Positions 7,146 through 47,946 of a stretch of 52,056 nucleotides of DNA are shown piece after piece (positions within the stretch are counted from its first letter, which is position 1; each line of letters starts with the position of its first letter). The position numbers and the translations under genes are program-made. The notes under the pieces were generated by a model, which did not search any database, was not told the origin of the DNA, and was given only the letters and a program-made list of their open reading frames with translations. Source of the DNA: an uncultured Bacillales bacterium (GTDB lineage: Bacteria > Bacillota_I > Bacilli_A > RF39 > UBA660); contig CAMVAN010000002.1 of assembly GCA_947165475.1 (NCBI GenBank), positions 1 to 52,056 of the forward strand. The letters run 5' to 3'.

Positions 7146-8480
7146 TTATTTAATTTGACTATATATTGAAAACATAGGTTGAATAATTGATAATAATATT
7201 ATTCCAACAACTATTGCTAGAAAGCATATTAAAAATGGTTCTACTAAACTTTTCATTTGATCTATAACATTTTTATGTAACATTTGAAAGTGTGTAGCAA
7301 CTTTTTCCATCATTTGTCCTAATTGTCCTGTTGTTTCTCCTGTTACAATCATTTCGTAGGCAACTACTGGAATGGCCCATTCTCCTCTAAATGCAGAGGA
7401 AATTGTATCTCCTTTTCCTAGGTTTTCTAAGGTATTCCCAATTATCCTCTTCATTACTTCGTTGTTTGTTATTTTTGATAGTATTTCCATACTATCTGTT
7501 ATAAATACACCATGATTTAATAATGAGGCAAATGTTTTTGTAAAGTTTGCTATCTCATTATATATTATGATATCTTTTATTACTGGTAAATGCATAAGAA
7601 TTGTTTGTATTGTTTCTCTAAATTTTTGATTTTTTTTAAATATTTGTACAAATATAAATACTAAAGCAACTATACCTATTATTAATAAGTACCAATAGGA
7701 TTTAATAAAGTTACTGATTCCTATTATTGCAAGTGTTAATGCTGGTAATTGTGCTCCGTTTTCTTCAAACATAGATGAAAATTGTGGTACTAAATAGGTT
7801 AACATGAATATTAAAACACCAAATGCAATTGTTAAGACTACTATTGGATAAGTCATTGCTGATTTCATTTGTTTACGTGTTTGATCCATTGATGTATAAT
7901 ATTCTGCCATGTCATCTAATATTGATGGTAAATCTCCTGTCATTTCGGCTGTTTTTACCATATTTATTAATAGTTTTGGATAGACTTTTCCTTGCATATT
8001 CATTGCGTCTGATAGGTTTTCACCTTTTAGTAATTGGTATACTAGTTGAAAAAAACTTTTTTTAATTCCTGGCTTTTTACTTTGTTTTGCTAAAATTCTT
8101 ACCGAGTCTGCTAAGGGAATTCCTGCTTTTAAGTAAGTTGATAATTGAGTGAGTGAAAATGATAAATCACTGGCATTAAATTTACTTGTTCCAATGTCTA
8201 TATCCATTTTGGAACGTTCTTTTACTTCTAATATTTGATAGTCTAGTGATGTTAAAAATGCTCGTACTTCGTCTGCACTTTCTGCATCAAATGTACCTGT
8301 TTCTTTTTTTCCTACTCCGTTAATTATAGTATATCGATACGGAGTTAATGGCCTTGTTATTTTTTTATCATTATTTTTTCTTGGGATTGTTGTTACTTCT
8401 TGTTGAGGTGTTAGTTGTTGAGTTGGTTGTTGATTTGATATTGGTTGATTTTTTTGTTCTTTTTTCTTTCCTCCAAACAT
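7146..8480 (-). CDS. pilC: Type IV pilus / type II secretion platform protein (GspF/PilC/ComGB family)
   Basis: Two GspF-type repeats with the typical layout (…LSxxLxAGIPLxxSVRIL… and …LLNHGVFITDSMEIL…) and 3 TM segments. Unusual Q/T/P-rich N-terminal extension of about 45 aa. Confidence 0.85.
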   Translation of the reverse strand: MFGGKKKEQKNQPISNQQPTQQLTPQQEVTTIPRKNNDKKITRPLTPYRYTIINGVGKKETGTFDAESADEVRAFLTSLDYQILEVKERSKMDIDIGTSKFNASDLSFSLTQLSTYLKAGIPLADSVRILAKQSKKPGIKKSFFQLVYQLLKGENLSDAMNMQGKVYPKLLINMVKTAEMTGDLPSILDDMAEYYTSMDQTRKQMKSAMTYPIVVLTIAFGVLIFMLTYLVPQFSSMFEENGAQLPALTLAIIGISNFIKSYWYLLIIGIVALVFIFVQIFKKNQKFRETIQTILMHLPVIKDIIIYNEIANFTKTFASLLNHGVFITDSMEILSKITNNEVMKRIIGNTLENLGKGDTISSAFRGEWAIPVVAYEMIVTGETTGQLGQMMEKVATHFQMLHKNVIDQMKSLVEPFLICFLAIVVGIILLSIIQPMFSIYSQIK

Positions 8481-20630: not shown

Positions 20631-22346
20631 TTATTTTCTTTTTATGTTTTTATTAAGTGCACTTTTTATTCTTTGTATTTCTTCTTCAGTTAAAACTGTA
20701 TTATGAATAATTGCTTGGAACAAAGCTTCTATTTTATCTTCGCTGTTTCTATTATAATATCTTTTTACTCTATTTTTAGATATTAATAGTCCATCTATTA
20801 TATATACTCTACTATTACCTTCTGAATATTCTATTAACTCTGGTATTTCACTATTATCATTTTGTTTTTCACATTCTTTTTGAATATACATTGTATAATT
20901 AAAAATATATTTATCTATTTCATTATCAGGTATTTCAAATTTATTTTTTTCTAGTATTTCATATATATCTTTTATTCTATATGGAATTGTACCAATATTT
21001 TTTATTAATATTAGTCTTTTTAGATGTTCATTATTTAATATTTCTAAATTTTTTTCTAGTTCGTTTTCTAATCCTATTTCTAATGATATATCTATTTTTT
21101 CTGCTAGTTTAGGATTTCTTAAGTAATTTAAATTAGTTCCATTCTTCATATAATTTATTAAATTATATTGTTTTAATATCTTAAGATTTTCTTTTAAAAA
21201 GTCGTTGTTTATAATTGCTTCTGGCGAATTAATAAACATCATTGGATTAATACCTATAAATGTTAAATGTCGATAGTTTTTCATTAATGATTTATGTTCT
21301 TTACTATTTTCATCTAAAACTTCTGGATAATTTATTAATACTTGTTTTTCTATAATACCATTTTTTAGTAAATTTATTATCATATTAAATGATTCTATAC
21401 TTGATATATTTTCTATACATTTTACTATTATTTCTTTATTATCAAAAAAAATTGTAAGTTGATTTAATATATTTTGTATTGATTCATATGATATTTTTAT
21501 TATTTTTTCAAGGTTAACTTCTTTAGCTTCAATATTATATTTTGATAATAATGCGATATAACTATTTTTTGAGTTTTCTTTCTTTAAATAATTATATTTA
21601 TTATCTTGCTCAATTTGTATTCTTATATTATGGTTATATATGTATAATAGTATTTGTCTTTTTATTTTTTCATTACTTATATTTTTAATTGATGATTCTA
21701 TTTTAATGATTTCTTTTTGGTTTTTATATTTTTGAATATCTTTTTTTGAATCTTCATATTGTTTTATTTGTTTTTTTAAATCATTAATATCATGCTTTAG
21801 TGTACGAATTACACAATTGATATTTCTTTCTATATTTTTTATTTCTTGACTATGAATTAAAATCCTAGATTTTATTTCATTATTCTTTATTGTAGTAAAT
21901 AAGTAAATTGCATAAATAAATATATTTTTATTTTTAACTAAGTATTTTTTCATTATTTTTATAACTTCTTCTATATCTTGAATTTTTTTATTATTTAGTT
22001 TTCTTAAAAAAATATTTATTTCTTTTGCTACTTCTTTTTCTTTATTTATATTTTTATACATAGTTTCTAATATTTTGACTAGGTTATAATAGTTTTTTTC
22101 ATCAATTTTATCTAATAAGGGTTTTAATATTTTCATGTCATTTTCTATATTATTGAAATATCTAATATCATCACCTACAAGTGTTATTGTTATGTATTCT
22201 GTTGGTGATAGGTCTTGAATTTTTGTTTTTGTTTTTAGTGATTCACTTGCTGTTTGATAGAGGTCTAGGATTTTTTGCTTTTCTTCTATTCTATTTTTTT
22301 GTAATTGAATTTCTGCGTTAATATCTTCTATAATTTCTTCTATCAT
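20631..22346 (-). CDS. Hypothetical 571-aa alpha-helical repeat protein; third gene of the 25083->20631 operon
   Basis: The start overlaps the upstream stop by 4 nt (ATGA). The N-terminal half is coiled-coil-like. The C-terminal half has repeated units of about 30-35 aa with a conserved Pro (INYPEVL, INSPEAI, LRNPKL). Confidence 0.5.
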   Translation of the reverse strand: MIEEIIEDINAEIQLQKNRIEEKQKILDLYQTASESLKTKTKIQDLSPTEYITITLVGDDIRYFNNIENDMKILKPLLDKIDEKNYYNLVKILETMYKNINKEKEVAKEINIFLRKLNNKKIQDIEEVIKIMKKYLVKNKNIFIYAIYLFTTIKNNEIKSRILIHSQEIKNIERNINCVIRTLKHDINDLKKQIKQYEDSKKDIQKYKNQKEIIKIESSIKNISNEKIKRQILLYIYNHNIRIQIEQDNKYNYLKKENSKNSYIALLSKYNIEAKEVNLEKIIKISYESIQNILNQLTIFFDNKEIIVKCIENISSIESFNMIINLLKNGIIEKQVLINYPEVLDENSKEHKSLMKNYRHLTFIGINPMMFINSPEAIINNDFLKENLKILKQYNLINYMKNGTNLNYLRNPKLAEKIDISLEIGLENELEKNLEILNNEHLKRLILIKNIGTIPYRIKDIYEILEKNKFEIPDNEIDKYIFNYTMYIQKECEKQNDNSEIPELIEYSEGNSRVYIIDGLLISKNRVKRYYNRNSEDKIEALFQAIIHNTVLTEEEIQRIKSALNKNIKRK

Positions 22347-23299
22347 TTTTTTGCGTACCCCCTTTCTAGTAATTCAAATAATTTTGTATCTATATCTAAA
22401 TTTTCTTCTATATATTCAGGATTCGTACATATTTTTTTGATTTTATCTTTATTTTTTTTATAATAGCTTATTTTTGATTCTAGATATTGACGGTAGGCTC
22501 TATCACTATTAGATTTCTTTGTAAAAATGGAAATAATTACATACTGATTAGATGAAATTCTTTCAAAAACTACTCTTACTTGATAACCTTTTACTTCTGG
22601 GATTCCTTTTACTTTATCATTTTCAGTTAATCTTTTTACGTTTTTAAATGTACCATCTTTTATGGAGTTTAGTAATTCTGCTATTCTTTCATAAAATGAT
22701 GTGTCTATACTTTTTATTTCTTCTATTGCTTGAATATTACCTGCATCTGTTTTTAGAAATAACAACTGATTTTCTATATTTTCAGTTTCTTGATCTTCAT
22801 CTTCATCATCTTTTTGGTAGAATGCATCTATTAATAATCTTCTTCTAGTATAAATATCATTAATCTCTTCTCTTGCTGCTTTATATTCCTCTTTTTTTAG
22901 TTCTAACTCTTGTATACATTCATACCAATCTTTTAATATTAAGTTTAGTTGAAGCAATATTATATTAATAATATCGCAATAGCGTTCATTTTTTATTGAT
23001 GGTAAAGTGCTTAGATATTCAGTTTTTAATTCATTTAATTCTAGGCCCATAAATTCGTTATAGTAATATTGTATTTCTTCATCTACTATTATTTTTGTTT
23101 CATCTTTTCTTGATAGTATATTTTTTATTTCTTTATTATTACTTGACTTTAATATTGAATTTTGTTCTTTTTTAGCTGCCTCTAATAATAATTTATATTC
23201 TTTTTTTTTTCTATCATAAGTAGTGTTATTACTGTTAATAATAGATTCTAAGTCTTTGATTGATATTGATTCTGTTTCATCTATTAGTATATAATCCAT
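22343..23299 (-). CDS. Hypothetical 318-aa protein with a RelE/ParE(Gp49/HigB)-like C-terminal domain
   Basis: The C-terminal ~130 aa reads ...KRLTENDKVKGIPEVKGYQVRVVFERISSNQYVIISIFTKKSNSD..., matching the G-[YS]-R-[IV]-[IV]-[FY]...[IL][IL].I[FY].KK toxin-fold signature. The N-terminal ~180 aa are coiled-coil and acidic. Confidence 0.45.
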   Translation of the reverse strand: MDYILIDETESISIKDLESIINSNNTTYDRKKKEYKLLLEAAKKEQNSILKSSNNKEIKNILSRKDETKIIVDEEIQYYYNEFMGLELNELKTEYLSTLPSIKNERYCDIINIILLQLNLILKDWYECIQELELKKEEYKAAREEINDIYTRRRLLIDAFYQKDDEDEDQETENIENQLLFLKTDAGNIQAIEEIKSIDTSFYERIAELLNSIKDGTFKNVKRLTENDKVKGIPEVKGYQVRVVFERISSNQYVIISIFTKKSNSDRAYRQYLESKISYYKKNKDKIKKICTNPEYIEENLDIDTKLFELLERGYAKK

Positions 23300-23305
23300 T
23301 ATTTA

Positions 23306-25024
23306 TCACCTCTTTTTTGTCTTTATTTTATGTCTTATTTTACCTATTCCTATTGTTGCTAAACCTATTATTCCTATTCCACTGATTCCTATAGGTATTT
23401 TTGATTCGATTTTGTTAAACTCTTTAATTTCATATAATTTTAAACTTTCTTCCGTAATTATTGGATTTTCAAAATCTTCTAAGGAATAATCTATAGCTAA
23501 ATGGCCTTCACTATTTTTTGCTCCAGCGTTTATACAACTATCAGTTACTTGATTTAAAGTTGCTTGAGTGATTTCAATTTCATCGAAGGCAGGATTTACT
23601 TCTGATATATCTATATCTTTTTTATCTTCTGTATATTGAGATCCACCTGCTATCCATAGTTCAAAATTATCAGGAACTGTATTATCTATATTTATTATTT
23701 TTTGTGTTAATGATTGGTTTGCATAAATTCCAGAAATATAACCATTCTCATTCATTTTGTCTTTCCATGCATTTAAACTTGCAATTAAAGTTTCATCTGT
23801 AAAATTATCAAGTGTTTCTAAGTCAAAGAATACTGGATACTTTATTTTACTATCTTTTATTGTATTTAGAGTTGTTTCTATTTGCTCATTAAACCTTTTC
23901 ATAAATTCTTCTTTAGATTCATTTTTTTTGGGATATACTTCATTCGTACAATATACTCCTATTGGTATATTATTTTCTTCACATGCTGCTTCATTATATT
24001 TAAAGCATTCATCTTCTGTATTTCCGTGATTACTTCGAATAATAATAAAATCAAAATCCATATTATTCCAATCCGTATCTTTTCCTTGCATCTCACTTAT
24101 ATCACAACCCATTAAAGGTTCTTCTAGTGTTACATAAGAATCTTTTCCGTATAATATTCTTTCTTGTTTAGTTGGTAATTTTATTGTTATTTTATTATCT
24201 TTATTTAATTGATGCTTTACTAATAACTCAAATAATTCATTATATTTTAATAATGATTCTATACTTATATTGTTTTTGTAAGCTAGTTCTTCTAGTTCTT
24301 CCCATGACTTAATACTAACTTTTTTATCTTTCATAAAATTAGATGGTTTATTTAATCCTTTTTCTTTTATATATACTGCTATATCTTTTGTTGCGTGTAT
24401 TCTTCCTTTTTCGTCTTTATATACATTATAATTACCTTCATAATCTTGATTATTATCCATTATTACGTATACATCTGACTCTTTTATATCTAAGTATTTT
24501 TCTGCTTTTTGTAGCAAATCATCTTTTCCTGCTATTCCTACATATATACCATTAGATGAACATTTATCTATAAATATATTTATTAAGTTTTGTTTTTCTG
24601 TATTACTTAGTCTTTTGTTTTCCATTATTTCTTTAATATTTATATATACTGGACAATTAACATTATATTTTAAAATTAAATTTTTTACATATTCAATATC
24701 ATTATATATTTCATAATCTTTTTCTGCTGTACTATTAATAATAAGACCACAAGCTATTCCTTTTTCATTACAGTATTTTATTTTTTGATCAAATAAAAGG
24801 GTTGCTAAATTTTTACTAGAACCTGCATCTAGTAATACAAAATCAGAACTTTTAACATTAAAGTTTAAGTATGGTATTATATCTTCATGCCCTATTTCAT
24901 GTGGTACTAAGTCTCCACTTACTAATTTTTCTTGATTTAAATGAAATGCAAGCCCAGCACCTGCTGATGCTGTTATTAGTATTGCTAGTGGAATTGCTGG
25001 ATTTATTTTAAATTTATTTATCAT
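23306..25024 (-). CDS. Membrane-anchored protein with tandem GH25-like muramidase domains and a LysM-like linker
   Basis: N-terminal TM (PAIPLAILITASAGAGLAF). Degenerate GH25-like repeat 1 (GIACGLIINS...CPVYINIKE...GIYVGIAG). LysM-like segment (VSIKSWEELEELAYKNNISIESLLKYNEL...ITIKLP). Better-conserved GH25-like repeat 2 (GCDISEMQGKDTDWNNMDFDFIIIRSNHG...IPIGVYC...YPVFFDLE...SGIYAN). C-terminal TM plus basic tail (IGISGIGIIGLATIGIGKIRHKIKTKKR). Confidence 0.6.
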   Translation of the reverse strand: MINKFKINPAIPLAILITASAGAGLAFHLNQEKLVSGDLVPHEIGHEDIIPYLNFNVKSSDFVLLDAGSSKNLATLLFDQKIKYCNEKGIACGLIINSTAEKDYEIYNDIEYVKNLILKYNVNCPVYINIKEIMENKRLSNTEKQNLINIFIDKCSSNGIYVGIAGKDDLLQKAEKYLDIKESDVYVIMDNNQDYEGNYNVYKDEKGRIHATKDIAVYIKEKGLNKPSNFMKDKKVSIKSWEELEELAYKNNISIESLLKYNELFELLVKHQLNKDNKITIKLPTKQERILYGKDSYVTLEEPLMGCDISEMQGKDTDWNNMDFDFIIIRSNHGNTEDECFKYNEAACEENNIPIGVYCTNEVYPKKNESKEEFMKRFNEQIETTLNTIKDSKIKYPVFFDLETLDNFTDETLIASLNAWKDKMNENGYISGIYANQSLTQKIINIDNTVPDNFELWIAGGSQYTEDKKDIDISEVNPAFDEIEITQATLNQVTDSCINAGAKNSEGHLAIDYSLEDFENPIITEESLKLYEIKEFNKIESKIPIGISGIGIIGLATIGIGKIRHKIKTKKR

Positions 25025-25054
25025 ATAATACCCCCCATTCTTTTACTGTTTCAC

Positions 25055-25083
25055 ATTATACCACATATGTAGGTCTTTGTCAA
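25055..25083 (-). promoter_or_regulatory. Consensus sigma-A promoter of the three-gene operon 25024->20631
   Basis: On the minus strand: TTGACA (25078-25083), a 17-nt spacer ending in TGG, then TATAAT (25055-25060). A G-rich RBS precedes the ATG at 25024. Confidence 0.8.
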
Positions 25084-25118
25084 TTTTTTTCTTTTCCCAA
25101 AAAAAATCTGTAAAGAAT

Positions 25119-27065
25119 TTATTCCTTTATAGATTTTTTCTTTATTTTTATTGTTGGATATATTGCATTTAATAAAATACTATTTTCTGAATATTTTTTT
25201 AATTGTTTTTCTACTGCATTTTCTCCTTCTGTGACAATCAAATTATTAATATCTTTTTTAAATTGATTATATTCTTCTAGATTGTTTGTTGATAAATTAT
25301 ATGAATTATTATCGTTTGTTTTATATTCTGCTATATATAAATAATTTGTATCTATATATGGTTCTATCAATTTACCATTTTCATAATAATAGTATTTATT
25401 ATTTATTTTATATATTGGCTTATTTATTTTTTTATTTATTTCTGTTTGATATTCTATTTCACATTCATTTGGTAGTCTTAATATTAGCTGACCTATATAA
25501 TTATATATTTCTGTTTCATTTTCATTTTTGCATATGAAAATATCATCTAGAAAGTCTATTTTAGTATAATTATTATCATTAATCATTTTTATTTCTGATT
25601 TATAATTATTTTGGCAAGCTATTTTATAATAATCCTTTTCTTTTAAGGCTAGAAATAAGTAATTATAAATATTTTGTTTGCTGTCAAATCCTATTTTTAT
25701 TTCATTGTATTTTATTGGTAGAATTATTTTATCTTTTTGTGCTAAACCTAATAAATTTTTTTGTTTAATTATGTTTATGTCATTTATTAATTTTTCTATA
25801 CTATCATATTTTGCGGGTAATAATATATTATCCTCTTCAAAATATTTTGATGGGTAAAATAATCCTACTTTGTTATCTTTTTTAAAAGTATAACTATTAA
25901 AATAAGTGTTATGGTCAATTATATTACAATTTTCAATCAGTGGGGTAATTTTCCATTGATTATTTTCGTATTCCATTGTACATATTGTACTTATTCCATT
26001 ATTATTAAGAATTATACTATATATTCCTATTTGTTCTATTGAATCATATCTTGGCTCTATTGGATTATCATTATAGTTTAGACCTATTGATAAGCCAAGT
26101 TTATTATTATTAATTAATACAAAGTTTTCATCTTTTATTTTTATTTTATCATAGTTTATTTTAACAATTTTCACTATTTTTGGCATATTTTCTTTATTAT
26201 CCCAATAGTTTATTGTTACTTTTATTATTCCGTGTTTATTATTTTTTACTACATCAAAATAATGATCATATTTTCTGTAACCTATTTCTTTCTTATATAG
26301 TAAATTTATATCATCGTATTCTTCACTAGAAATTATTTTTCTTAAAGTTCTACTATATAGTATTTCAATTGTTTTATTATTTTTACATTTAAGCAAAAAT
26401 CCTTCTATTTTTTCTATTTTATTATATTTTTCTGTTTCTTTGATTTTCCCATCTACTTCTTTTTTAGCATATTGTTGTTTATCTTTAGTAAAAATTAATA
26501 GGCCATAATCATTTTCTATATTATCGAATTCTAATGGTTCTTCTATTTCTAATAATTTATTTTCTACATTTATTTTTATTATTCCTTTTTTTTGTTTTGT
26601 TACTATAAAACTCTTATTTGACATTCCTTCAATATATTCTACTTTTTCAAAACCTTCATTTATAATATCATTTTTATTTCTTGCTGTATAACAATTAAAT
26701 ATATGATATTTATTTGTATTAGTATTTTTTAATATTAATAATTCCATATTGTCGTAATATAATGAAAAAATATTGTGTTTTTCTATTAATTCATAATTCT
26801 TAATAAACATACTTTTATTTTTCACATCATATATATTTATTGTATTATTTCCTTCGCTATTTTTATCTTTACTTATTAAGTATATAAATTTATTATCTTT
26901 ATCATTAATTATATCATATTTTCCTTTTTCTATTATTAATTGTTTTGATTTTATGTTATATAGTACGACATATCCATTATCTAATTTTACTATAGCTATA
27001 TCATCAATAATTTCTAGATTGTTGTAAAATACTTTTTCTTTTATTGTTTTATTTTCTATTTCCAT
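25119..27065 (-). CDS. Large cytoplasmic repeat protein with degenerate WG/KWG-like beta repeats
   Basis: Recurrent units of the type ..NK.G(I/L)(I/F)....(I/L)(L/E)P.(K/R)YD(S/E)IE.., for example NKHGIIKV, NKLGLSIG...PRYDSIEQIG, NKVGLFYP...PAKYDSIEKL and LLGLAQKDKIILPIKYNEI. No signal peptide. Confidence 0.5.
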   Translation of the reverse strand: MEIENKTIKEKVFYNNLEIIDDIAIVKLDNGYVVLYNIKSKQLIIEKGKYDIINDKDNKFIYLISKDKNSEGNNTINIYDVKNKSMFIKNYELIEKHNIFSLYYDNMELLILKNTNTNKYHIFNCYTARNKNDIINEGFEKVEYIEGMSNKSFIVTKQKKGIIKINVENKLLEIEEPLEFDNIENDYGLLIFTKDKQQYAKKEVDGKIKETEKYNKIEKIEGFLLKCKNNKTIEILYSRTLRKIISSEEYDDINLLYKKEIGYRKYDHYFDVVKNNKHGIIKVTINYWDNKENMPKIVKIVKINYDKIKIKDENFVLINNNKLGLSIGLNYNDNPIEPRYDSIEQIGIYSIILNNNGISTICTMEYENNQWKITPLIENCNIIDHNTYFNSYTFKKDNKVGLFYPSKYFEEDNILLPAKYDSIEKLINDINIIKQKNLLGLAQKDKIILPIKYNEIKIGFDSKQNIYNYLFLALKEKDYYKIACQNNYKSEIKMINDNNYTKIDFLDDIFICKNENETEIYNYIGQLILRLPNECEIEYQTEINKKINKPIYKINNKYYYYENGKLIEPYIDTNYLYIAEYKTNDNNSYNLSTNNLEEYNQFKKDINNLIVTEGENAVEKQLKKYSENSILLNAIYPTIKIKKKSIKE

Positions 27066-34165: not shown

Positions 34166-34591
34166 TTATTTTTGGCAAGTATCGTTTTTTATTGGGGTAT
34201 CTTTTCCATTATTTGGGAATGTATAATTGTAATTTATACAACATAATACTACTGTATAATTTTCGTCTGGTAGATTGCTAGATTCTCCTCCTGCTCCAGT
34301 TGTTGTTCTTGTAACTTTTCCGTCACATATATTCTCGGAAGATGACGGATCAGTTGGCCTCTCTAGATAATCTTTTTCATATAAATCATTAATTGTTACT
34401 GTTGTTGCGGTTGGATGATCTACAATATATTCTTCCATTGCAGAAATACTTGATTGTACTAACGTTTCATATGCTTTTTTTCTTGTACCATTTATATATC
34501 TAGAATAAGCAGTGATTGCTAATCCCATTAATATGCCCATTATTGTTATAGTTCCTAATAATTCTACTAATGAAAATCCTTTTTTATTCAT
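34166..34591 (-). CDS. Type IV pilin / pseudopilin with an N-terminal cleavage-methylation motif
   Basis: MNKKG|FSLVELLGTITIMGILMGLAITAY. Glu at +5. Cys residues in the C-terminal part (C..C, CC) may form a disulfide loop. Confidence 0.85.
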   Translation of the reverse strand: MNKKGFSLVELLGTITIMGILMGLAITAYSRYINGTRKKAYETLVQSSISAMEEYIVDHPTATTVTINDLYEKDYLERPTDPSSSENICDGKVTRTTTGAGGESSNLPDENYTVVLCCINYNYTFPNNGKDTPIKNDTCQK

Positions 34592-36463: not shown

Positions 36464-36481
36464 AATGTTGAGGTATTTATT

Positions 36482-37468
36482 ATGTTTTTAGAAATTTCAA
36501 ATACTTGTAGTAATTCAATGCTATTTACATTTTTATCTATTGTTAAAACTTTTTTTAATGTTTTACATATAATCGTACCATTACTACTTATAATATCTCT
36601 TACTATTTCTCTTACTAAATTAGTTCAAGATCCTGATGAGAAAAAGGCTCCTAAAAAAATATTAAATTCTGTTTTAGCTGCTGTTATTGTTTTTTTTCTT
36701 CCTACTATGATTAATGTTGTTATTAATTTGGTAGCAGGTGAAGGTGATTTTAGTAGTTGTTGGGAAAATGCATCTATTCGTTCTAATTTATCTCATAAAT
36801 ATCAAGAGATAAATGGTAATAATAAACAAAGTATTAATATTAATGGTTATGAGCCTGGAAATAATAATGGTAATAGTTCCGGAAGCAATACTACTTCTAC
36901 TGTAAATGGAGTTACTCTTCCTTTTGATTTAGAACATGCTATTAAGGTTGGTGAAAGTATTCATACTTCTCGGAATGGTAATTTAAAATGGCAAGGCAAA
37001 ACTATTCATACTGTTGGTGGAACAATTGGAGCTTATGAAGAAGTTATTAATATTTTTAATGGAACAGACTATCATATTTATGAGATATATGATATTTTAG
37101 TAAAAGCTCATCCAAATTTAGTTTATAAACATATTGAACCTTATGAATGCGAGGATATTAATAACAAGTTTGGGTTTACAAAATCTAGAGCTTCTGCTAA
37201 TATCAATGAAGTAGATAAAGCTCTTAATCAAGGAAAGTTAGTTCAATTAATGGTTGGTACTAATAAATGGAGAAATGATAAAGGTAAATTAGTTAATTGG
37301 CCTGGTGGTCATACAGGATTAATATTCTATTTTGATGGTAAGTATTATCATATGAAAGCTGCTGGTAAAATCAATCAAAAAAATGCTATTTATACTAGAC
37401 AACAATTAATTGATTGGATTGGTAATACTAGAAAAAGATTGGTAATATATACAAAAAATAAGCAATGA
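36482..37468 (+). CDS. Paralog family member A1: two-Cys membrane hairpin, N/G/S-rich linker and an unrecognised conserved C-terminal domain
   Basis: 328 aa, collinear with 38411-39379 over its full length and with 41405-41812 over the first ~125 aa. Conserved C9 and C93 flank TM1, the loop DPDEKKAPKK and TM2. The C-domain has FDLEHAIKV, IGAY, NGTDY, KWRNDKG and HTGLIFYFDG..YHMK. Confidence 0.75.
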   Translation: MFLEISNTCSNSMLFTFLSIVKTFFNVLHIIVPLLLIISLTISLTKLVQDPDEKKAPKKILNSVLAAVIVFFLPTMINVVINLVAGEGDFSSCWENASIRSNLSHKYQEINGNNKQSININGYEPGNNNGNSSGSNTTSTVNGVTLPFDLEHAIKVGESIHTSRNGNLKWQGKTIHTVGGTIGAYEEVINIFNGTDYHIYEIYDILVKAHPNLVYKHIEPYECEDINNKFGFTKSRASANINEVDKALNQGKLVQLMVGTNKWRNDKGKLVNWPGGHTGLIFYFDGKYYHMKAAGKINQKNAIYTRQQLIDWIGNTRKRLVIYTKNKQ

Positions 37469-37470
37469 AA

Positions 37471-37680
37471 TTATTGATATTTTTCCATCGCTTTCATCAT
37501 TTGATTTATCTGTTTTTGATTTGGTTTTCTTCCCATTTGCATCATAAGAGCTTTTATCATATCTTCATTAATTGGAGGATTCTTTTTTAAATAACTTTTC
37601 ATAAATGTTCTTGCTCCAAAAAAACCAATAACTGCTCCTATTACTATACCTACAATTAATATTAATATGTCATGTAACAT
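37471..37680 (-). CDS. yneF: UPF0154/YneF family small membrane protein
   Basis: [53 protein letters not shown] is the family hallmark. The ATG at 37680 follows GAGGAGGGA. Confidence 0.85.
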
Positions 37681-37720
37681 AATTTCCCTCCTCTTAAATA
37701 TTTTACATAAAATTATGCTT

Positions 37721-38149
37721 TTAGACAAGTGATTTTCTACAATAATCATCTAAAAAGAAAAAATCTGTTTTTTGAAAAGAACATGCAAATAAATTTGGAT
37801 TTTCTTTTAATAATTCAAAAAATGTTGAAAAGTTCTGTTCACATTCTATCTTCATAAAATAATGATTAATTATTAATCTACTTATTTCATTTCTATATAG
37901 ATTATTGATAATATGAATATCATTTCTTTTGGAATATGGGATTGATTGATGGTATTTTATAAATAAGTTTTTATCTAATTCTTTTTTATTAAAAGGGGAT
38001 ACTAATTGTCTAAATAAATGGTACCCATAATCTACTTCTGTTTTATCTAAATAGTATATGTTTTTTAACATTAGAAATAAAGTACTTGGACTATCTTTAT
38101 ATAGAGAAACAAATTCGTCTTTTAATTGAAAAATATAATATACTTTCAT
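37721..38149 (-). CDS. sirA: SirA (YneE)-like protein, a possible sporulation inhibitor of replication
   Basis: About 140 aa. The N-terminus [14 protein letters not shown] and the C-terminal [16 protein letters not shown] resemble B. subtilis SirA as I remember it. The position directly upstream of yneF and near tkt mirrors the Bacillus tkt-yneE-yneF arrangement. Confidence 0.5.
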
Positions 38150-38410
38150 TTTATCACCATTTATAATATATCATTTATAATTGTCAAATATTGTTGATTT
38201 AGGAGGATTTTTATGAAATGTAAATATTATAATATTATAATTAATAAGAGTAAGTAGTGCCCAAATTGTGATAAAGTTACTGACCAAGGTAAAAACTATT
38301 TGGCTTTGGCATCTATTTTATCTTTAGTTTTTAGAAATTCTTACTGTTATTTTATTTATATATTTAATTATTAATGGAAATTTCTAATAATTATTATAGG
38401 AGGTTTTAAA

Positions 38411-39379
38411 ATGATATTAGATATTAGTAATACTTGTAATAATTCCATTCTCTTTACTTTTTTATCTATTGTAAAAACAATTTTAAATTTATTGCATATA
38501 GTTGTCCCATTATTGCTTATATTGTCTCTTACTATTACACTTACTAAGTTGGCTCAAAATCCTGATGAGAAAAAAGCACCTAAGAAGATTATTAATAGTC
38601 TTATAGCGACAGTAATTATTTTCTTTCTTCCAACTATTATAAATGTAGTTATTGATTTAGTTGCTGGAGAAAGTGATTTTAGTAATTGTTGGGAAAATGC
38701 TTCTATTCATTCTAATTTATCACATAATTATCAGGAAATTAATGGTACTAACAAACAAAAAATTAATACTAGTGGTTATGAGCCTGGTAATAAGCAAGTT
38801 AATGATGGTGGTAATCAAACTTCATCTAATGGTTCTTTTGATTTGGAACATGCTATTAAGGTTACTTCTGATCCTCATAATAGTAAACATGAGAATCTTC
38901 CATGGCATGGGTCAACAGTCGGCAAACATGCTGGAATGATTGGTGCTTACGTTGAAGCTATTAATATATTAAATGGAACGGATTATACTTTGCTTGAAAT
39001 TTATAATAAGATTATTTCATTGCATCCTGAACAAAAATCCAAAAATGTACCTGTATATGAGAATGATGATGTTAATAAACTATATAATATCAAGGTGGAA
39101 CGGGCCTCTCCTAATATGAATGAAATTAAAAAGGCTCTTTCTGAAGGAAAGCTTGTTGCTGAAATTGTTGATACTACTAAATGGAGAAATGATAAAGGCA
39201 ATTTATTTGGCAAAACTGGTAGACACACTGGACTTATTTTCTATTTTGACGGAACTCATTATCATATGAAGACTTCTGTTCAGCCTAATGGAATCTATAC
39301 GGAGTCTCAATTAAGCGACTGGTTAGGCAATGCATCTACTAAACTTGTAATATATTCTTATTGCAATAACTGTAATTAA
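38411..39379 (+). CDS. Paralog family member A2 (same architecture as A1)
   Basis: 322 aa. AGGAGG RBS at 38398-38403. The N-terminal 125 aa are close to identical in pattern to A1 (…ISNTCNNSILFTFLSIVKT…DPDEKKAPKK…SNCWENAS…YQEING…GYEPGN). The C-domain is conserved with A1. Confidence 0.75.
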   Translation: MILDISNTCNNSILFTFLSIVKTILNLLHIVVPLLLILSLTITLTKLAQNPDEKKAPKKIINSLIATVIIFFLPTIINVVIDLVAGESDFSNCWENASIHSNLSHNYQEINGTNKQKINTSGYEPGNKQVNDGGNQTSSNGSFDLEHAIKVTSDPHNSKHENLPWHGSTVGKHAGMIGAYVEAINILNGTDYTLLEIYNKIISLHPEQKSKNVPVYENDDVNKLYNIKVERASPNMNEIKKALSEGKLVAEIVDTTKWRNDKGNLFGKTGRHTGLIFYFDGTHYHMKTSVQPNGIYTESQLSDWLGNASTKLVIYSYCNNCN

Positions 39380-39418
39380 TAGATTTAGGATTGTTTTCTA
39401 TAAGGATTATAATCTTTT

Positions 39419-40291
39419 TTATTTTATATATAAATTAATTTTATTGTCCTTATATGATTTATATATTTTATTCCATATTTCACTTTCTACATATCTTGCT
39501 TTTTTGGGATGCATTAAATATCGTACAGTTAATTCTATATAATTATCTACAATTCTAGTGTAAATAACTGGATCAAATTTATTATAATAAATTCTATTTG
39601 TTGAATTAATATAGTTTATTTGATTTTTCATTTTAGGTGGAATATTTTTTATTATTTCATTGTTATTAATTATCTTATATATTTCCTTTTTATTTTTTTG
39701 TAAATCACCTTTTAAATCTATTTTTATTATTATTTCATCCCATATATATTTAAATCCTTTTGTTATATTTTTTATAGGTTTTGTTAATACAATTGATGAT
39801 GGGAATGTTACAATTATTCCAGTTGATTGACCATGGAGTTCATTTGCTGATACTTCTACTATTTCAAATGATAATGCAAAAATATTGGTAACGTCTCCTT
39901 TAATTCCATCTATTTCTATTCTATCTTCTACCTTAAATGGTTTTTTTATGTTTATATATAGCCCACAAAAAAAGTTTAGGATTAATTCTCTTAATGCAAT
40001 TGTCATTGCTGCTGTAATAACACTGATTAAAGTCATTAAATTTTTTATAAAATTATTCCATATTATAATAAAAGATAAACATTCTAATATATTTAATAAT
40101 ATCTGTAAAGTATGATTTATAAAGTATTCTTTTCTACCCTCCATTTTTTTATAAATTATATGATGAATTAGTTTTCTTAAAATGCCATAAAATATAAATA
40201 TAAAGGTAGATTCTAATAATAATGATAATAAATTATAATTTGTTGTACTAATAATATTTATTTTTTTTATTATCTCATTAAATATTTGCAT
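39419..40291 (-). CDS. Small-conductance mechanosensitive channel (MscS family)
   Basis: 3 N-terminal TMs followed by the MscS core …FFCGLYINIKKPFKVEDRIEIDGIKGDVTNI…. Confidence 0.75.
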   Translation of the reverse strand: MQIFNEIIKKINIISTTNYNLLSLLLESTFIFIFYGILRKLIHHIIYKKMEGRKEYFINHTLQILLNILECLSFIIIWNNFIKNLMTLISVITAAMTIALRELILNFFCGLYINIKKPFKVEDRIEIDGIKGDVTNIFALSFEIVEVSANELHGQSTGIIVTFPSSIVLTKPIKNITKGFKYIWDEIIIKIDLKGDLQKNKKEIYKIINNNEIIKNIPPKMKNQINYINSTNRIYYNKFDPVIYTRIVDNYIELTVRYLMHPKKARYVESEIWNKIYKSYKDNKINLYIK

Positions 40292-40411
40292 CTAGTTTCA
40301 CCCCGCGAAAGATGATTATATCATATATTATTCTTTTTTATTAACAAATTATTCTTACTTTACATAATTTTACAAAAAAAGCATAGATTTCTCTATACTT
40401 TTTTATAATTA

Positions 40412-40867
40412 TTATTTTTTATATGTTTTTTGTATATCGTCATAATCTATTATTCTATTTGAACCAAATCCATCTGAATCTATATGAAGCATCTCATAAA
40501 CATATTGTTTGGCTTTATCGTGAGCGTTTCCATATTCATCTGTATAAAAAGGTCTAACTACATTTGATTTTGAAATTGGAAATGTTTCACCATTTATATC
40601 AATAATATATTGGTTAGCTTTATTTGCACAATTATCACAATCATATATAATATAATTACCATTATCTAGTACTAATAGTACTGTTGATTCATTATTTTCA
40701 TCTGAATAATTTTTTGTTTCTAAGTTCAATGTGTTTTCTTCATTTACAGTTTGTTCATTATCTTGATTATTTGCATTTTGCCCAGCACATCCTGGTAATA
40801 ATGTTGTTGTTCCAATCATTGATGCTAGTATTAAATAGTTTTTAAATTTTATTAATTTATTTTTCAT
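40412..40867 (-). CDS. Lipoprotein of unknown function
   Basis: The ATG at 40867 follows AGAGAGGGAAA. Signal peptide with lipobox: MKNKLIKFKNYLILASMIGTTTLLPG|C. Confidence 0.7.
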   Translation of the reverse strand: MKNKLIKFKNYLILASMIGTTTLLPGCAGQNANNQDNEQTVNEENTLNLETKNYSDENNESTVLLVLDNGNYIIYDCDNCANKANQYIIDINGETFPISKSNVVRPFYTDEYGNAHDKAKQYVYEMLHIDSDGFGSNRIIDYDDIQKTYKK

Positions 40868-40883
40868 ATTTATTTCCCTCTCT

Positions 40884-41258
40884 TTAATTACATTTATTTT
40901 TTGTGAACTCTTTATTATTAGGCTTTTCTTTAGATTCTTCGTTTTTATTTTCTTCATCGATTATTTTTAGCAAATCGTTTAATGAGTTAATGTCATAATA
41001 CTCATGCGTAACAGCATTGAATCCTGCAATTTTTTTGCCTTGTTTCTTTTCATCTTTTATAGATAATATATAAATAGTTGTTTTATTTACATTTAGTGTT
41101 GCTATCACATCACCTTCAAGTAATTGTTGTTTTATTAGATTAAATAATCTTTGGTTTTTGAGAACTATTATTTTGGGTTTTCTATCTGTTTCATAGCTAT
41201 TTTCCCATGTTTCATAAGTACTTCCGTAATTATTATATTTGTTGTTTTCTCCATACAT
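40884..41258 (-). CDS. Hypothetical 124-aa protein
   Basis: ORF with an N/Y-rich N-terminus and a K/E-rich tail, directly upstream of the lipoprotein gene. No motif recognised. Confidence 0.4.
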   Translation of the reverse strand: MYGENNKYNNYGSTYETWENSYETDRKPKIIVLKNQRLFNLIKQQLLEGDVIATLNVNKTTIYILSIKDEKKQGKKIAGFNAVTHEYYDINSLNDLLKIIDEENKNEESKEKPNNKEFTKNKCN

Positions 41259-41404
41259 ATTTTTATCTCCTTATGACATTTTATTCTAGCATTATCGAAA
41301 TTTTTTGTAAATAGTTTTTTCTTTTTTGTTTAATTATATGTATTTTTAATTAATTGTTGTTTTAAAATATTATTAATGTTAAAATACTTTTTGAGGTTTT
41401 TATT

Positions 41405-41812
41405 ATGATTATAAATATTACAAGTACATGTTCAGATTCTATTTTAATACCATTTTTATCTATATTAAAAAATTTTTTAAATATTATTCACATTGTTGTA
41501 CCTTTATTATTAATATTATCTGTTACATTAACTATTACAAAACTTATGCAAGATCCTGATGATAAGAAAGCTCCTAAAAAAATTATAAATAGTGTTATTG
41601 CTATTGTGATAATCTTCTTTTTACCGGTTTTTTTAGACATTGTTATTAATTTAACTGGAGAAGATGAAAGTATTTCAAATTGCTTTAATCTAAATCAATC
41701 TCAAGACAGGATATCTTCATCTTATCAAGAAATTAATGAAGGTGAAAAGAAAAAAATTGTTAGTGGGTCTTATGAAGATGGAAATCAAGAGAGTGATATT
41801 AATTCCAAATAA
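41405..41812 (+). CDS. Paralog family member A3: truncated form with the membrane hairpin and linker only
   Basis: 135 aa. It keeps C9, TM1, DPDDKKAPKK, TM2, C93 and the YQEIN linker but stops before the C-domain. The 5' UTR (TTAATGTT…TGAGGTTTTTATTATG) is homologous to that of A1. Confidence 0.7.
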   Translation: MIINITSTCSDSILIPFLSILKNFLNIIHIVVPLLLILSVTLTITKLMQDPDDKKAPKKIINSVIAIVIIFFLPVFLDIVINLTGEDESISNCFNLNQSQDRISSSYQEINEGEKKKIVSGSYEDGNQESDINSK

Positions 41813-46632: not shown

Positions 46633-47946
46633 ATGAAAAATATAGATTTTGGTAATTATTTATATAAGCTAAGAAAACAAAATCATTATACTCAAAAATA
46701 TGTTGCTTATGAGTTGGGCATAAGTGATAAAACTGTAAGTAAGTGGGAAACTGGGAATTCTAAGCCTGATTTAGATACTTTAAGACTACTTTCAGTATTG
46801 TATCATACTTCATTTGAAGAAATTATTTCTTGTTCTTCTAGTACTAACTTGCCTAATATTCATAAGATTGTTTTGACTGGGGGACCTTGTGCAGGGAAAA
46901 CTACTGCTTTAAATCATATTGAACAATATTTTTCTAAACGGGGGTATACTGTTTTACTTGTTTCTGAAACTGCTACTGAATTAACGTCTAGTGGCTTATT
47001 TCCTACTATTTGTAATTCTAATTATGATTATCAACGAACTCAAATAATGATGCAAAAGGAAAAAGAGAAAATTTATGAAGATGCTGCTAAACATTTAAAA
47101 AATACAAATATACTAATTGTATGTGATCGTGGTGTTATTGATAATAAAGCTTATATGAAGAATATTGAATTTAAGAGACTTTTAAGTGATTTAGGAACGA
47201 ATGAAGTTCTTGAAAGAGATTCATATGATGCAATCTTTCATTTGGTTAGTACTGCTAAGGGAAGAGAAAAAGAATATAATTTAAATCATGCTGTTCGTTC
47301 TGAGACTATCCAAGAAGCTAAAGACTTAGATGATAAAATTATTGCTGCTTGGACTGGTCATCCTTACTTTCGCATAATCGATAATAGCTTAGACTTTGAA
47401 AATAAATTAAAACAACTTTTATTAGAAATAAGTTCTTTTTTAGGTGAACCTGAACCATTTGAAATTGAAAGGAAATACATTATAAAATATCCTGATATTT
47501 CTTATTTAGAAAGTTTACCCTTTTGTAATAAAGTTAATATCATACAAACATATCTTAAATCTACTCATGATATAGAAAGAAGGATTCGATGTAGAGGAGT
47601 TGAAGATAATTTTGTTTATTATTTGACTGAGAAAAGGAAAATATCTAATTTAAAAAGAATTGAGGTAGAAAGAAGAATTTCAAAAGATGATTATTTATCT
47701 TTCTTATTAGAATCTGATAATAGTCTTCGCACTATTATTAAAACTCGATATTGTTTAATGATACATAATCAATATTATGAAATAGATATTTATCCAGAAT
47801 GGAGTAAGCAAGCTATATTAGAAGTTGAGCTTAGAGATGAGAATGAATCTATCTATTTTCCGGATTTTATTAATATTATTAAGGAAGTTACGGATGATGA
47901 TAGTTATAAAAATTATAATATGGCAAAATCTATGCCTAAAGAGTGA
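46633..47946 (+). CDS. XRE-type HTH, P-loop NTPase/kinase (AAA_28/NadR-RNK-like) and CYTH domain fusion protein
   Basis: HTH (LRKQNHYTQKYVAYELGISDKTVSKWETG). Walker A GGPCAGKTT and Walker B ILIVCDRG. C-terminal CYTH with EIERKY (ExExK), later basic residues, and AILEVEL. Confidence 0.8.
   Translation: MKNIDFGNYLYKLRKQNHYTQKYVAYELGISDKTVSKWETGNSKPDLDTLRLLSVLYHTSFEEIISCSSSTNLPNIHKIVLTGGPCAGKTTALNHIEQYFSKRGYTVLLVSETATELTSSGLFPTICNSNYDYQRTQIMMQKEKEKIYEDAAKHLKNTNILIVCDRGVIDNKAYMKNIEFKRLLSDLGTNEVLERDSYDAIFHLVSTAKGREKEYNLNHAVRSETIQEAKDLDDKIIAAWTGHPYFRIIDNSLDFENKLKQLLLEISSFLGEPEPFEIERKYIIKYPDISYLESLPFCNKVNIIQTYLKSTHDIERRIRCRGVEDNFVYYLTEKRKISNLKRIEVERRISKDDYLSFLLESDNSLRTIIKTRYCLMIHNQYYEIDIYPEWSKQAILEVELRDENESIYFPDFINIIKEVTDDDSYKNYNMAKSMPKE

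Follow-up and report, generated by a model that had tools for sequence, protein, structure and literature searches.

Why would a bacterial chromosome keep, among its housekeeping genes, three copies of a membrane module that resembles the pilin of a conjugation apparatus? The question is raised by three related genes, here called A1, A2 and A3, on contig CAMVAN010000002.1 of an uncultured Bacillales bacterium, a rumen Firmicute, of which a stretch of 52,056 nucleotides was analysed (positions 1 to 52,056, hereafter the window). The explanation that we favour, with moderate confidence, is that they encode a domesticated VirB2-like hairpin, with both ends outside the cell and clamped by a disulfide, which tethers wall-directed domains, A1 and A2 being binding or regulatory proteins and A3 a bare hairpin. 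The three open reading frames (ORFs), all on the plus strand, were found exactly where the original prediction, made from the sequence alone, had placed them:

36482 to 37468, plus strand: A1, 328 residues; hairpin module (residues 1 to ~130), low-complexity linker and a predicted Cys-less, C39_2-like papain-fold domain (residues ~140 to 328)
38411 to 39379, plus strand: A2, 322 residues; architecture as in A1, with the C-terminal domain (residues ~136 to 322) at 38816 to 39376
41405 to 41812, plus strand: A3, 135 residues; only the hairpin module and the junction motif, without globular domain

That prediction had also taken the three for homologs at both the DNA and the protein level, and the identities over codons 1–127 bear this out: the modules of A1 and A2 share 79% of their residues and 81% of their nucleotides, and that of A3 is 52–57% (protein) and 62–64% (DNA) identical to those of the other two. 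Furthermore, a hidden Markov model (HMM) of the hairpin, run on the six-frame translation of the window, matched exactly A1, A2 and A3, with E values of 1e-35 to 1e-37, and therefore the resemblance is not due to chance. A contig of a related rumen metagenome-assembled genome (MAG), likewise labelled “uncultured Bacillales bacterium” (L001/L005), carries an A1 ortholog with 84% protein identity and the same order of genes, i.e., uvrC, A1, UPF0154, SirA, A2, MscS-like, a small protein, A3 and transketolase. The ratios of non-synonymous to synonymous substitutions (dN/dS) between orthologs are 0.15, 0.08 and 0.26 for A1, A2 and A3, respectively. Given these syntenic orthologs and ratios, the three are real genes under purifying selection and form a true paralog family, as had been proposed.

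The N-terminal module common to the three proteins, of about 130 residues, comprises Cys9, two long hydrophobic segments, a basic loop and Cys93. In A1, its parts are distributed as follows:

36506 to 36508, plus strand: codon of Cys9, in the predicted extracytoplasmic N-tail; this Cys is invariant in 40 aligned hairpins and is the proposed disulfide partner of Cys93
36560 to 36733, plus strand: first transmembrane segment (residues ~27–47), predicted cytoplasmic basic loop DPDEKKAPKK (residues 50–59) and second transmembrane segment (residues ~60–84), from the alignment and the AlphaFold2 helices
36758 to 36760, plus strand: codon of Cys93, in the motif S-x-C-W just outside the second transmembrane segment, from the alignment and the conservation of the Cys pair
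36848 to 36862, plus strand: YEPGN junction motif, where the conserved module gives way to the variable C-terminal part

The AlphaFold2 model of A1 has helices at residues 12–49 and 56–84, and the window proteins present the succession of helix, short basic loop and helix, in a hairpin of some 70 residues, that characterizes T4SS (type IV secretion system) pilins. Cys9, Cys93 within S-x-C-(W/F), and the linker YQEIN...(G/S)YE(P/D)GN recur in the alignment of A1–A3, as had been read from the sequence. The loop, which had been called invariant, is indeed present in all three as (D/N)PD(E/D)KKAPKK, but it is not strictly so, the A2 version beginning with N. None of the three has a cleavable N-terminal signal peptide: only 8 residues precede the conserved Cys, and in-frame stops 8–13 codons 5′ of each ATG delimit the ORFs, so that neither a longer N-terminus nor a signal peptide is possible.

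To which family does this module belong? Against PF18895 (T4SS_pilin), A1, A2 and A3 score 19.8, 21.6 and 24.1 bits, respectively (E 4e-5 to 8e-4), and so fall short of the gathering threshold of 26.6 bits, which is surpassed by four relatives: P0174 (29.2 bits), P0196 (31.1), P0198 (34.0) and P0167 (43.1), the last of which also matches TrbC. Weak matches link the window proteins to the NCBIfam models of the Mbov_0395 pilin-like protein and of the pLS20_p028 and Mbov_0396 conjugation proteins. When the profile was searched exhaustively, the module turned up in 2158 representatives (clusters at 50% identity) at E ≤ 1e-3 and in 297 at E ≤ 1e-10, some 30 of them being carriers of the C-terminal domain of A1 and A2 (hereafter the C-domain). 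Among 117 family representatives, the positions C8, P32, P50, K53, A65, F70, P73 and C92 are each at least 90% conserved, and 78 match PF18895 at E ≤ 1e-3 (best E 9e-10).

The most telling comparison comes from a group of distant, hairpin-only relatives, typified by P0339 (117 residues), in which one Cys comes just behind a signal peptide and another is C-terminal. Their genes form a tandem pair within a bona fide monoderm T4SS locus (L025, 4766–15554), where they are followed by genes for a 760-residue membrane protein, a TraC-like protein, a VirB4-like ATPase, an M23+lysozyme hydrolase and a type IV coupling protein (T4CP). The profile of the window's family aligns with that of this group with an hhalign probability of 98.9% and an E value of 2.8e-17, which argues that the resemblance to VirB2 is homology. 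Thus, judged by profile comparison, the hairpin module is homologous to the VirB2-like pilin of T4SS and can be assigned to the kin of PF18895. The original prediction had seen a likeness to VirB2/TrbC in topology only and had found no named domain to which the family could be assigned; with these scores, neither statement can be maintained. To our knowledge, VirB2-type pilins are usually said to be absent from monoderm (Gram-positive) conjugation systems, and the pair in L025 argues against that statement.

The likeness to VirB2/TrbC pilins (PF18895, PF04956 TrbC, NCBIfam Mbov_0395) extends from the two long hydrophobic helices with a short basic loop and the similarity of profiles to the tying of the ends, achieved by cyclisation in T-pilin and TrbC and matched in the A1–A3 family by a conserved Cys pair, and to the multiple divergent paralogs per genome, comparable to the pilin arrays of Patescibacteria. 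Nevertheless, the window proteins differ from them in several respects: A1–A3 lack the cleavable signal peptide, which the T4SS-linked relative P0339 does have; they stand singly among housekeeping genes and not beside virB4, virB6 or T4CP genes; they remain below the Pfam and NCBIfam thresholds; and A1 and A2 carry a globular C-terminal domain of about 190 residues. With the conjugation or integrative-element transmembrane proteins pLS20_p028 and Mbov_0396 (300–380 residues), they share a hairpin followed by a long C-terminal extension, with NCBIfam E values of 3e-4 to 1e-2 over the hairpin, but their scores are 15–20 bits against cut-offs of 70–150, the C-terminal parts are unrelated, and those proteins belong to mobile elements.

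The hairpin family is large and undescribed. Searches of its profile and of P0208, a distant member, against the Protein Data Bank (PDB) by sequence gave either no match or only spurious ones to transmembrane helices, and a PHROGs search gave nothing useful. In the literature on PF18895, only the VirB2-like arrays of Patescibacteria were found, and nothing on a Firmicutes hairpin family. In Patescibacteria, VirB2-like pilin arrays of 2–11 divergent paralogs adjoin virB4 (bioRxiv 10.1101/2025.01.22.634366).

The family also informs about A3. A junction motif resembling Y-E-x-G occurs near residue 123 in 78 of 104 representatives, and about a quarter of the family representatives are short forms like A3; these are also most of what a homolog search with the hairpin profile returned. 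Twelve of the 27 short forms with the loop motif have the junction motif, and 11 of the 12 end 3–16 residues past it. Since A3 orthologs of near-constant length are found in more than 20 clusters (mostly 127–144 residues, a few of 89–202), A3 is a short form that has been maintained rather than a remnant. The initial description of the three as membrane-hairpin proteins holds for A3 and falls short for A1 and A2, which add a predicted papain-fold domain without catalytic Cys.

Which way does the hairpin face? The answer comes from the company in which the C-domain of A1 and A2 is found elsewhere: it follows a type II signal anchor and a low-complexity linker (P0018, P0060), a signal peptide and Big_2 (P0119, P0120), or dockerin and Big_2 (P0155, P0157, P0170). 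The C-domain is therefore extracytoplasmic and, in consequence, the C-terminus of the second transmembrane segment and the N-tail are placed outside, and the basic loop inside. This is the topology first proposed on the positive-inside rule, to which the domain contexts bring independent support; basic residues are indeed concentrated in the loop, with a family average of 3.76 Lys/Arg in its 12 residues versus 1.75 in the 27-residue N-tail.

Both conserved Cys would then be outside. A Cys is present both before the first transmembrane segment and within 25 residues after the second in 103 of 104 representatives, and the combined number of Cys in the two outside segments is even in 101 of them (1+1 in 90, 3+1 in 11). 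Such even, paired counts are what a disulfide between the two outside ends predicts, and the disulfide suggested at the outset thus gains support from conservation. A Cys9–Cys93 bond would probably clamp the hairpin. T-pilin and TrbC undergo head-to-tail cyclisation, of which the disulfide may, by analogy, be the functional counterpart. A different use of Cys93, as a papain-like catalytic Cys lent to the C-domain, was considered and discarded: C-domain proteins with other N-termini lack this residue, and hairpin-only proteins keep it.

The second building block of A1 and A2 is joined to the hairpin by a low-complexity linker rich in Asn, Ser and Gly, and in A1 it is located as follows:

36899 to 37465, plus strand: C-domain of A1, predicted papain-like fold, with the codons of Gly180 (37019–37021), His277 (37310–37312) and His290 (37349–37351), from AlphaFold2, Foldseek and the alignment with P0208

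The C-domains of A1 and A2 are 52–53% identical, and residues ~140–328 have no match in Pfam (PF13529 included, for A1 as for A2), NCBIfam or, by sequence, the PDB. Structure prediction proved more informative. The C-domain reaches a predicted local distance difference test (pLDDT) above 90 in the AlphaFold2 model of full-length A1, and a pLDDT of 89.3 with a predicted template modelling score (pTM) of 0.88 when modelled alone. In Foldseek, this model matches the pseudomurein endoisopeptidase PeiR (E 4.5e-4, TMq 0.51) and 3erv (TMq 0.51), as well as staphopain and the C39 domains of PCAT1 and ComA; the five best matches have probabilities of 0.96–1.0 and template modelling scores of ~0.4–0.5, and sequence identity to solved structures is 10–16%. 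Among the viral models of BFVD, it matches AvrRpt2-like proteins, phage proteins labelled “Peptidase” and a wall hydrolase like phi29 gp13. On this modelling evidence, the C-domain has a papain-like fold (clan CA, C39_2-like). A bridge at the sequence level is provided by P0208, which matches the C-domain profile with an E value of 7e-17 and is alone in passing the threshold of Peptidase_C39_2 (PF13529), with 27.9 bits against a cut-off of 24.

In the alignment, “RGCGLCAYTM” of P0208 lies over “VGGTIGAYEE” of A1, so that Gly180 takes the place of the Cys in the “C-G” motif of C39_2. Of the 27 aligned domains, 25 have Gly in this column, the exceptions being P0168 (Glu) and P0208 (Cys); among 36 homologs it is at least 90% Gly, the next residue being variable (T, M, D, S, A, Y, P or G). 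His277 and His290, both at least 90% conserved, begin the consecutive strands 277–284 and 289–293, a placement like that of the His-His or His-Asp of NlpC/P60 and C39 enzymes, and H152, H161, E187, H210, D225, R264, D285 and K292 are equally conserved in the 36 homologs. As the alignments indicate, the domain has lost the canonical nucleophile and keeps a strongly constrained site. With Peptidase_C39_2 and other clan CA proteins (3erv of B. anthracis, PeiR, staphopain, PCAT1, ComA), the C-domain thus shares the predicted fold, the His of the central strand and a counterpart of His290 on the next one, and it departs from them by the exchange of Cys for Gly and, in A1 and A2, by the lack of a Pfam match.

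Both modules have been fused repeatedly, and in both the common denominator of the fusions, according to domain annotation, is the cell wall. The C-domain is joined to NlpC/P60 and Phage_lysozyme2 (P0148, P0149), NlpC/P60 (P0166, P0169), CHAP (P0151) and ELLD (P0153), as well as to Big_2, dockerin and ricin-type lectin domains, and once to a PF18895 hairpin and Big_2 (P0167). In turn, among the 117 family representatives the hairpin is fused to NlpC/P60 (8), Peptidase_C39_2 (6), M23 (3), CHAP, C70, S11 DD-carboxypeptidase, glucosaminidase, NAGPA and alpha/beta-hydrolase families (2 each), and VanY, Amidase_6, YkuD, GH114, GDPD, LRAT and ATLF (one each). Fusion of the hairpin to wall-active enzymes is thus found throughout the family. 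Peptidase_C39_2 has been listed among the catalytic domains of lysins from phages of Gram-positive bacteria (PMC8223927).

Membrane-anchored hydrolases are familiar from Gram-positive T4SS, where the VirB1-like PrgK, TraG of pIP501, CwlT and TcpG fulfil this role. Like the proteins considered here, these have an N-terminal membrane anchor followed by NlpC/P60, CHAP, lysozyme or M23, domain sets that recur in the C-domain carriers P0148 and P0149; unlike A1 and A2, they are catalytically active enzymes with a single transmembrane anchor, and their genes belong to conjugation loci. In the window, no VirB4, VirB6 or T4CP gene was found. Moreover, no secretion genes flank the hairpin-bearing relatives L020 and L021, where 16–21 kb were examined, nor the C-domain-only proteins at L017 and L018; all these neighbours are housekeeping genes. 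At L021 (10001–12174), in a spore-former context with CotE and YlbF, the gene of a 128-residue hairpin-only member lies 12 nt 5′ of a co-directional gene for a 591-residue protein with weak WG_beta_rep matches, a pair that may be a split version of the architecture of hairpin plus domain.

The two modules do not share the same history. The C-domains fall into two clean clades, with 83–96% identity within the A1 type, 81–99% within the A2 type and ~51% between them, and the N-modules do not follow these clades: P0005 (A1-type) and P0009 (A2-type) have N-modules that are 94% identical, and those of P0006 and P0012 are 92% identical, the A3 N-module staying apart at 52–61%. This suggests gene conversion or module exchange between the A1 and A2 paralogs, which lie 2 kb apart; the hairpin modules concerned by such concerted evolution occupy 36482–36871 and 38411–38800 of the window. 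Furthermore, the C-domain is ~70% (65–71%) identical to that of rumen Lachnospiraceae proteins with unrelated N-termini, which suggests recent horizontal spread within the rumen. The C-domain matches at this level (L006–L010, L012 and L013) set a Bacilli-like MAG of 25% GC against Lachnospiraceae, Clostridia and Sarcina sp. DSM 11001, and nearly all genome matches of the C-domain come from rumen or omasum MAGs.

How might such proteins work? A1–A3 would be chromosomal, T4SS-independent descendants of a VirB2-like pilin of monoderm conjugation systems. The N-terminal module would insert as a helical hairpin, with its short N-tail and C-terminus exposed and its basic loop in the cytoplasm, and the exposed ends would be held together by the Cys9–Cys93 disulfide. 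In A1 and A2, the hairpin would tether the Peptidase_C39_2-like domain at the outer face of the membrane through the flexible linker. Since the nucleophilic Cys has been replaced by Gly and the His-His pair kept, binding is more probable than cleavage, and the Cys-less domain would most likely bind a peptide ligand, with a stem peptide of the cell wall or a partner hydrolase as the likely candidates. In that case, the domain would serve as a pseudo-enzyme for wall targeting or regulation. The bare hairpin of A3 may co-assemble with A1 and A2. There are models for such a role: the C39-like domain of HlyB and the degenerate LytM (dLytM) factors EnvC and NlpD are catalytically degenerate folds of wall enzymes that serve as binders or regulators. 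The C-domain resembles them in having a peptidase fold minus its nucleophile or metal ligands, a conserved groove and an action with, or beside, true hydrolase domains; it differs in that the HlyB domain is cytoplasmic and dLytM factors have the M23 fold, the regulatory role of A1 and A2 being putative.

Several points count against this proposal. The equivalence of Gly180 with the catalytic Cys was mapped through a single Cys-bearing relative, P0208, and the helix position; the strong conservation of His152, His161, Glu187, His210, Asp225 and Arg264, and likewise that of His277, Asp285, His290 and Lys292, would also fit an enzyme that does without Cys. Some partners of the hairpin, such as ATLF, alpha/beta hydrolases and GDPD, are not obviously directed at the wall. 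The host is a strict anaerobe, in which disulfides may not form, and a T4SS is possible elsewhere in its genome, the search having covered the 52-kb window.

Could the proteins be weapons instead? One may imagine a set of polymorphic antibacterial effectors, in which the hairpin would be a trafficking module, YE(K/P)G a recombination or cleavage junction and the C-domains toxins against rumen competitors, an idea that we consider unlikely. As in polymorphic toxins, one conserved N-module is combined with many C-terminal enzymatic domains, ATLF and typical effector folds among them; the junction motif is conserved at the module boundary, just beyond which nearly all motif-bearing short forms end; the phylogenies of the two modules are discordant; the identity of C-domains between the Bacilli MAG and Lachnospiraceae suggests horizontal transfer; and genomes hold several paralogs. 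However, no co-directional, immunity-like ORF is found 3′ of A1, A2 or A3, each of which abuts a convergent housekeeping gene, nor is there a downstream immunity gene at L020 or next to the C-domain-only protein at L017. The stable synteny and purifying selection, the lack of secretion-system neighbours at the loci examined and the loss of the nucleophile in A1 and A2 speak in the same direction, and partners such as S11, VanY and YkuD are ordinary enzymes of wall maturation.

A second alternative concerns only the C-domain and leaves the role of the hairpin unchanged. The domain could be an active non-cysteine hydrolase, working with a His-activated water or a metal, and the protein a membrane-tethered autolysin or wall-remodelling peptidase. 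The ten nearly invariant residues of the 36 homologs (H152, H161, E187, H210, D225, R264, H277, D285, H290 and K292) are in line with this, as are the tandem arrangement of the C-domain with lytic domains, which is that of catalytic domains in modular lysins, and the fold class that it shares with PeiR and C39-like peptidases. Nevertheless, Gly occupies the catalytic column in all but two of the aligned C-domains, with a variable residue next to it, and no papain-fold peptidase that works with no nucleophile there is known to us. We rate an active enzyme as improbable, to the same degree as the effectors.

A bolder extension of the domesticated-hairpin explanation, to which we attach rather little probability, would be that the hairpin retains the self-assembly of VirB2 without the conjugation machine, and that bare and enzyme-bearing subunits co-polymerise into a membrane-rooted, lipid-associated scaffold. 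If true, this scaffold would position wall-active or wall-binding domains across the wall of low-GC Firmicutes, with NlpC/P60-, M23-, S11- or YkuD-bearing subunits in other genomes, and would constitute a new, pilin-based way to organise cell-wall enzymes; on this view, the hairpins of A1 and A2 would have evolved in concert because the subunits must fit one another. Still more speculative is the notion that the Cys-less, PeiR-like domain binds pseudomurein and tethers rumen hydrogen producers to methanogens.

There is also the literal explanation, that these are genuine T4SS pilins, subunits of a pilus for conjugation or effector delivery, built by a T4SS encoded elsewhere, with A3 as the major pilin and A1 and A2 decorating the filament. 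The homology to pilin-like proteins of T4SS loci speaks for it, VirB2-type pilins expose their termini on the pilus surface, and arrays of 2–11 divergent VirB2 paralogs do exist in Patescibacteria (bioRxiv 10.1101/2025.01.22.634366). It is made very doubtful by the lack of VirB4, VirB6 and T4CP genes within the 52 kb, as well as within 16–21 kb around two hairpin-bearing relatives, by the missing signal peptide, which T4SS-linked relatives have, and by genes scattered among housekeeping ones and not arrayed beside virB4. Finally, the missing C-domain and the greater divergence of A3 might suggest a truncated gene in decay, within a functionless family peculiar to one lineage. This is contradicted by the A3 dN/dS of 0.26 and the near-constancy of its ortholog lengths, by a quarter of the representatives being equally short and often ending near the junction motif, and by a family of more than 2000 representatives, and the pseudogene is ruled out.

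A ribosome-binding site had been predicted for each of the three genes, and a GAGG or GGAGG box is indeed found 7–8 nt 5′ of each ATG, as read from the sequence:

36470 to 36473, plus strand: GAGG Shine-Dalgarno box of A1, 8 nt 5′ of the ATG
38399 to 38403, plus strand: GGAGG Shine-Dalgarno box of A2, 7 nt 5′ of the ATG
41393 to 41396, plus strand: GAGG Shine-Dalgarno box of A3, 8 nt 5′ of the ATG

The 5′ untranslated regions of A1 and A3, described as homologous, are so for ~18 nt around this site, in very AT-rich DNA, and not over the rest. Promoter-like hexamers show no excess in this 25% GC DNA, with 62 in the window versus 53.8 ± 7.8 in shuffled sequence, and the scan for terminators likewise gave no more than the shuffled control; the layout of the genes makes it plausible that each is transcribed singly from its own promoter. 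The remaining large ORFs of the window lie almost all on the minus strand, and A1, A2 and A3 end 2, 39 and 25 nt, respectively, before the convergent genes for UPF0154, an MscS-like protein and transketolase, which agrees with the head-on arrangement noted at first. The GC skew is locally positive at 36–40 kb.

The window is core chromosome, with genes for phosphoglucomutase, DHH phosphoesterase, DnaB_2, a T2SSF pilus platform protein, Tgt, QueA, RuvB, Obg, a hybrid histidine kinase, UvrC, transketolase, a P-type ATPase and a CDF transporter; Rfam and tRNA scans of it were empty. The T2SSF platform protein (7146–8480, minus strand) and an N_methyl pseudopilin (34166–34591, minus strand) are parts of a type IV pilus or competence pseudopilus; they belong to this machinery and not to a T4SS, and are unrelated to the hairpin family. 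The only other sizeable plus-strand gene of the region, at 46633–47946, combines HTH_3 and AAA_28 and resembles a NadR-like or transcriptional-regulator kinase. At 20631–27065 (minus strand), four large ORFs follow one another (571, 318, 572 and 648 residues), three of them without Pfam match; the 572-residue one has a GH25 muramidase domain and hydrophobic segments at both ends.

Around the three genes, conservation is uneven. The region between SirA and A2, 96.5% identical to L001, was considered as a regulatory RNA and dropped, since its neighbours are equally conserved (94–97%). A 36-residue, zinc-ribbon-like CxxC...CxxC ORF with its own AGGAG box lies intact 5′ of A2 in L001 (7126–7236) and in L003 (1928–2038); in the window (38213–38257), it has a 3-nt insertion and several substitutions, and a TAG closes it after 14 codons. 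The part of the locus least conserved with respect to L001 is 40412–41404, from the MscS-like gene to A3 (72–85%, versus 94–97% in the flanking genes), which contains a lipoprotein-like ORF of 181 residues with an LLPGCAG motif and an overlapping one of 124 residues; the lipoprotein-like gene is called with 181 versus 164 residues in the two contigs.

Both building blocks of A1 and A2 belong to known superfamilies. New, in that no description of them was found, are a T4SS-independent, signal-peptide-less and fusion-prone hairpin family of Firmicutes, its systematic association with wall enzymes, and a rumen-enriched, Cys-less C39-like domain. A VirB2-like hairpin is thus present in Firmicutes T4SS loci and would also have been widely domesticated, with more than 2000 representatives, as the N-terminal module of extracytoplasmic proteins, of which the most recognisable are peptidoglycan-active enzymes. 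For annotation, it follows that the PF18895 label “T4SS pilin” in a Firmicutes genome is no evidence for a T4SS. For the biology of these bacteria, the family offers a handle on how low-GC Firmicutes without sortase or LysM-type anchors position their wall enzymes, and on the role that a disulfide-clamped pilin fold may play outside a secretion system. Furthermore, it gives access to the ligand of a rumen-enriched, horizontally mobile, Cys-less C39-like domain, which is also carried by dockerin-bearing (cellulosome-type) and lysin-like proteins, and whose ligand bears on the interactions between cells, and between cells and walls, in the rumen.

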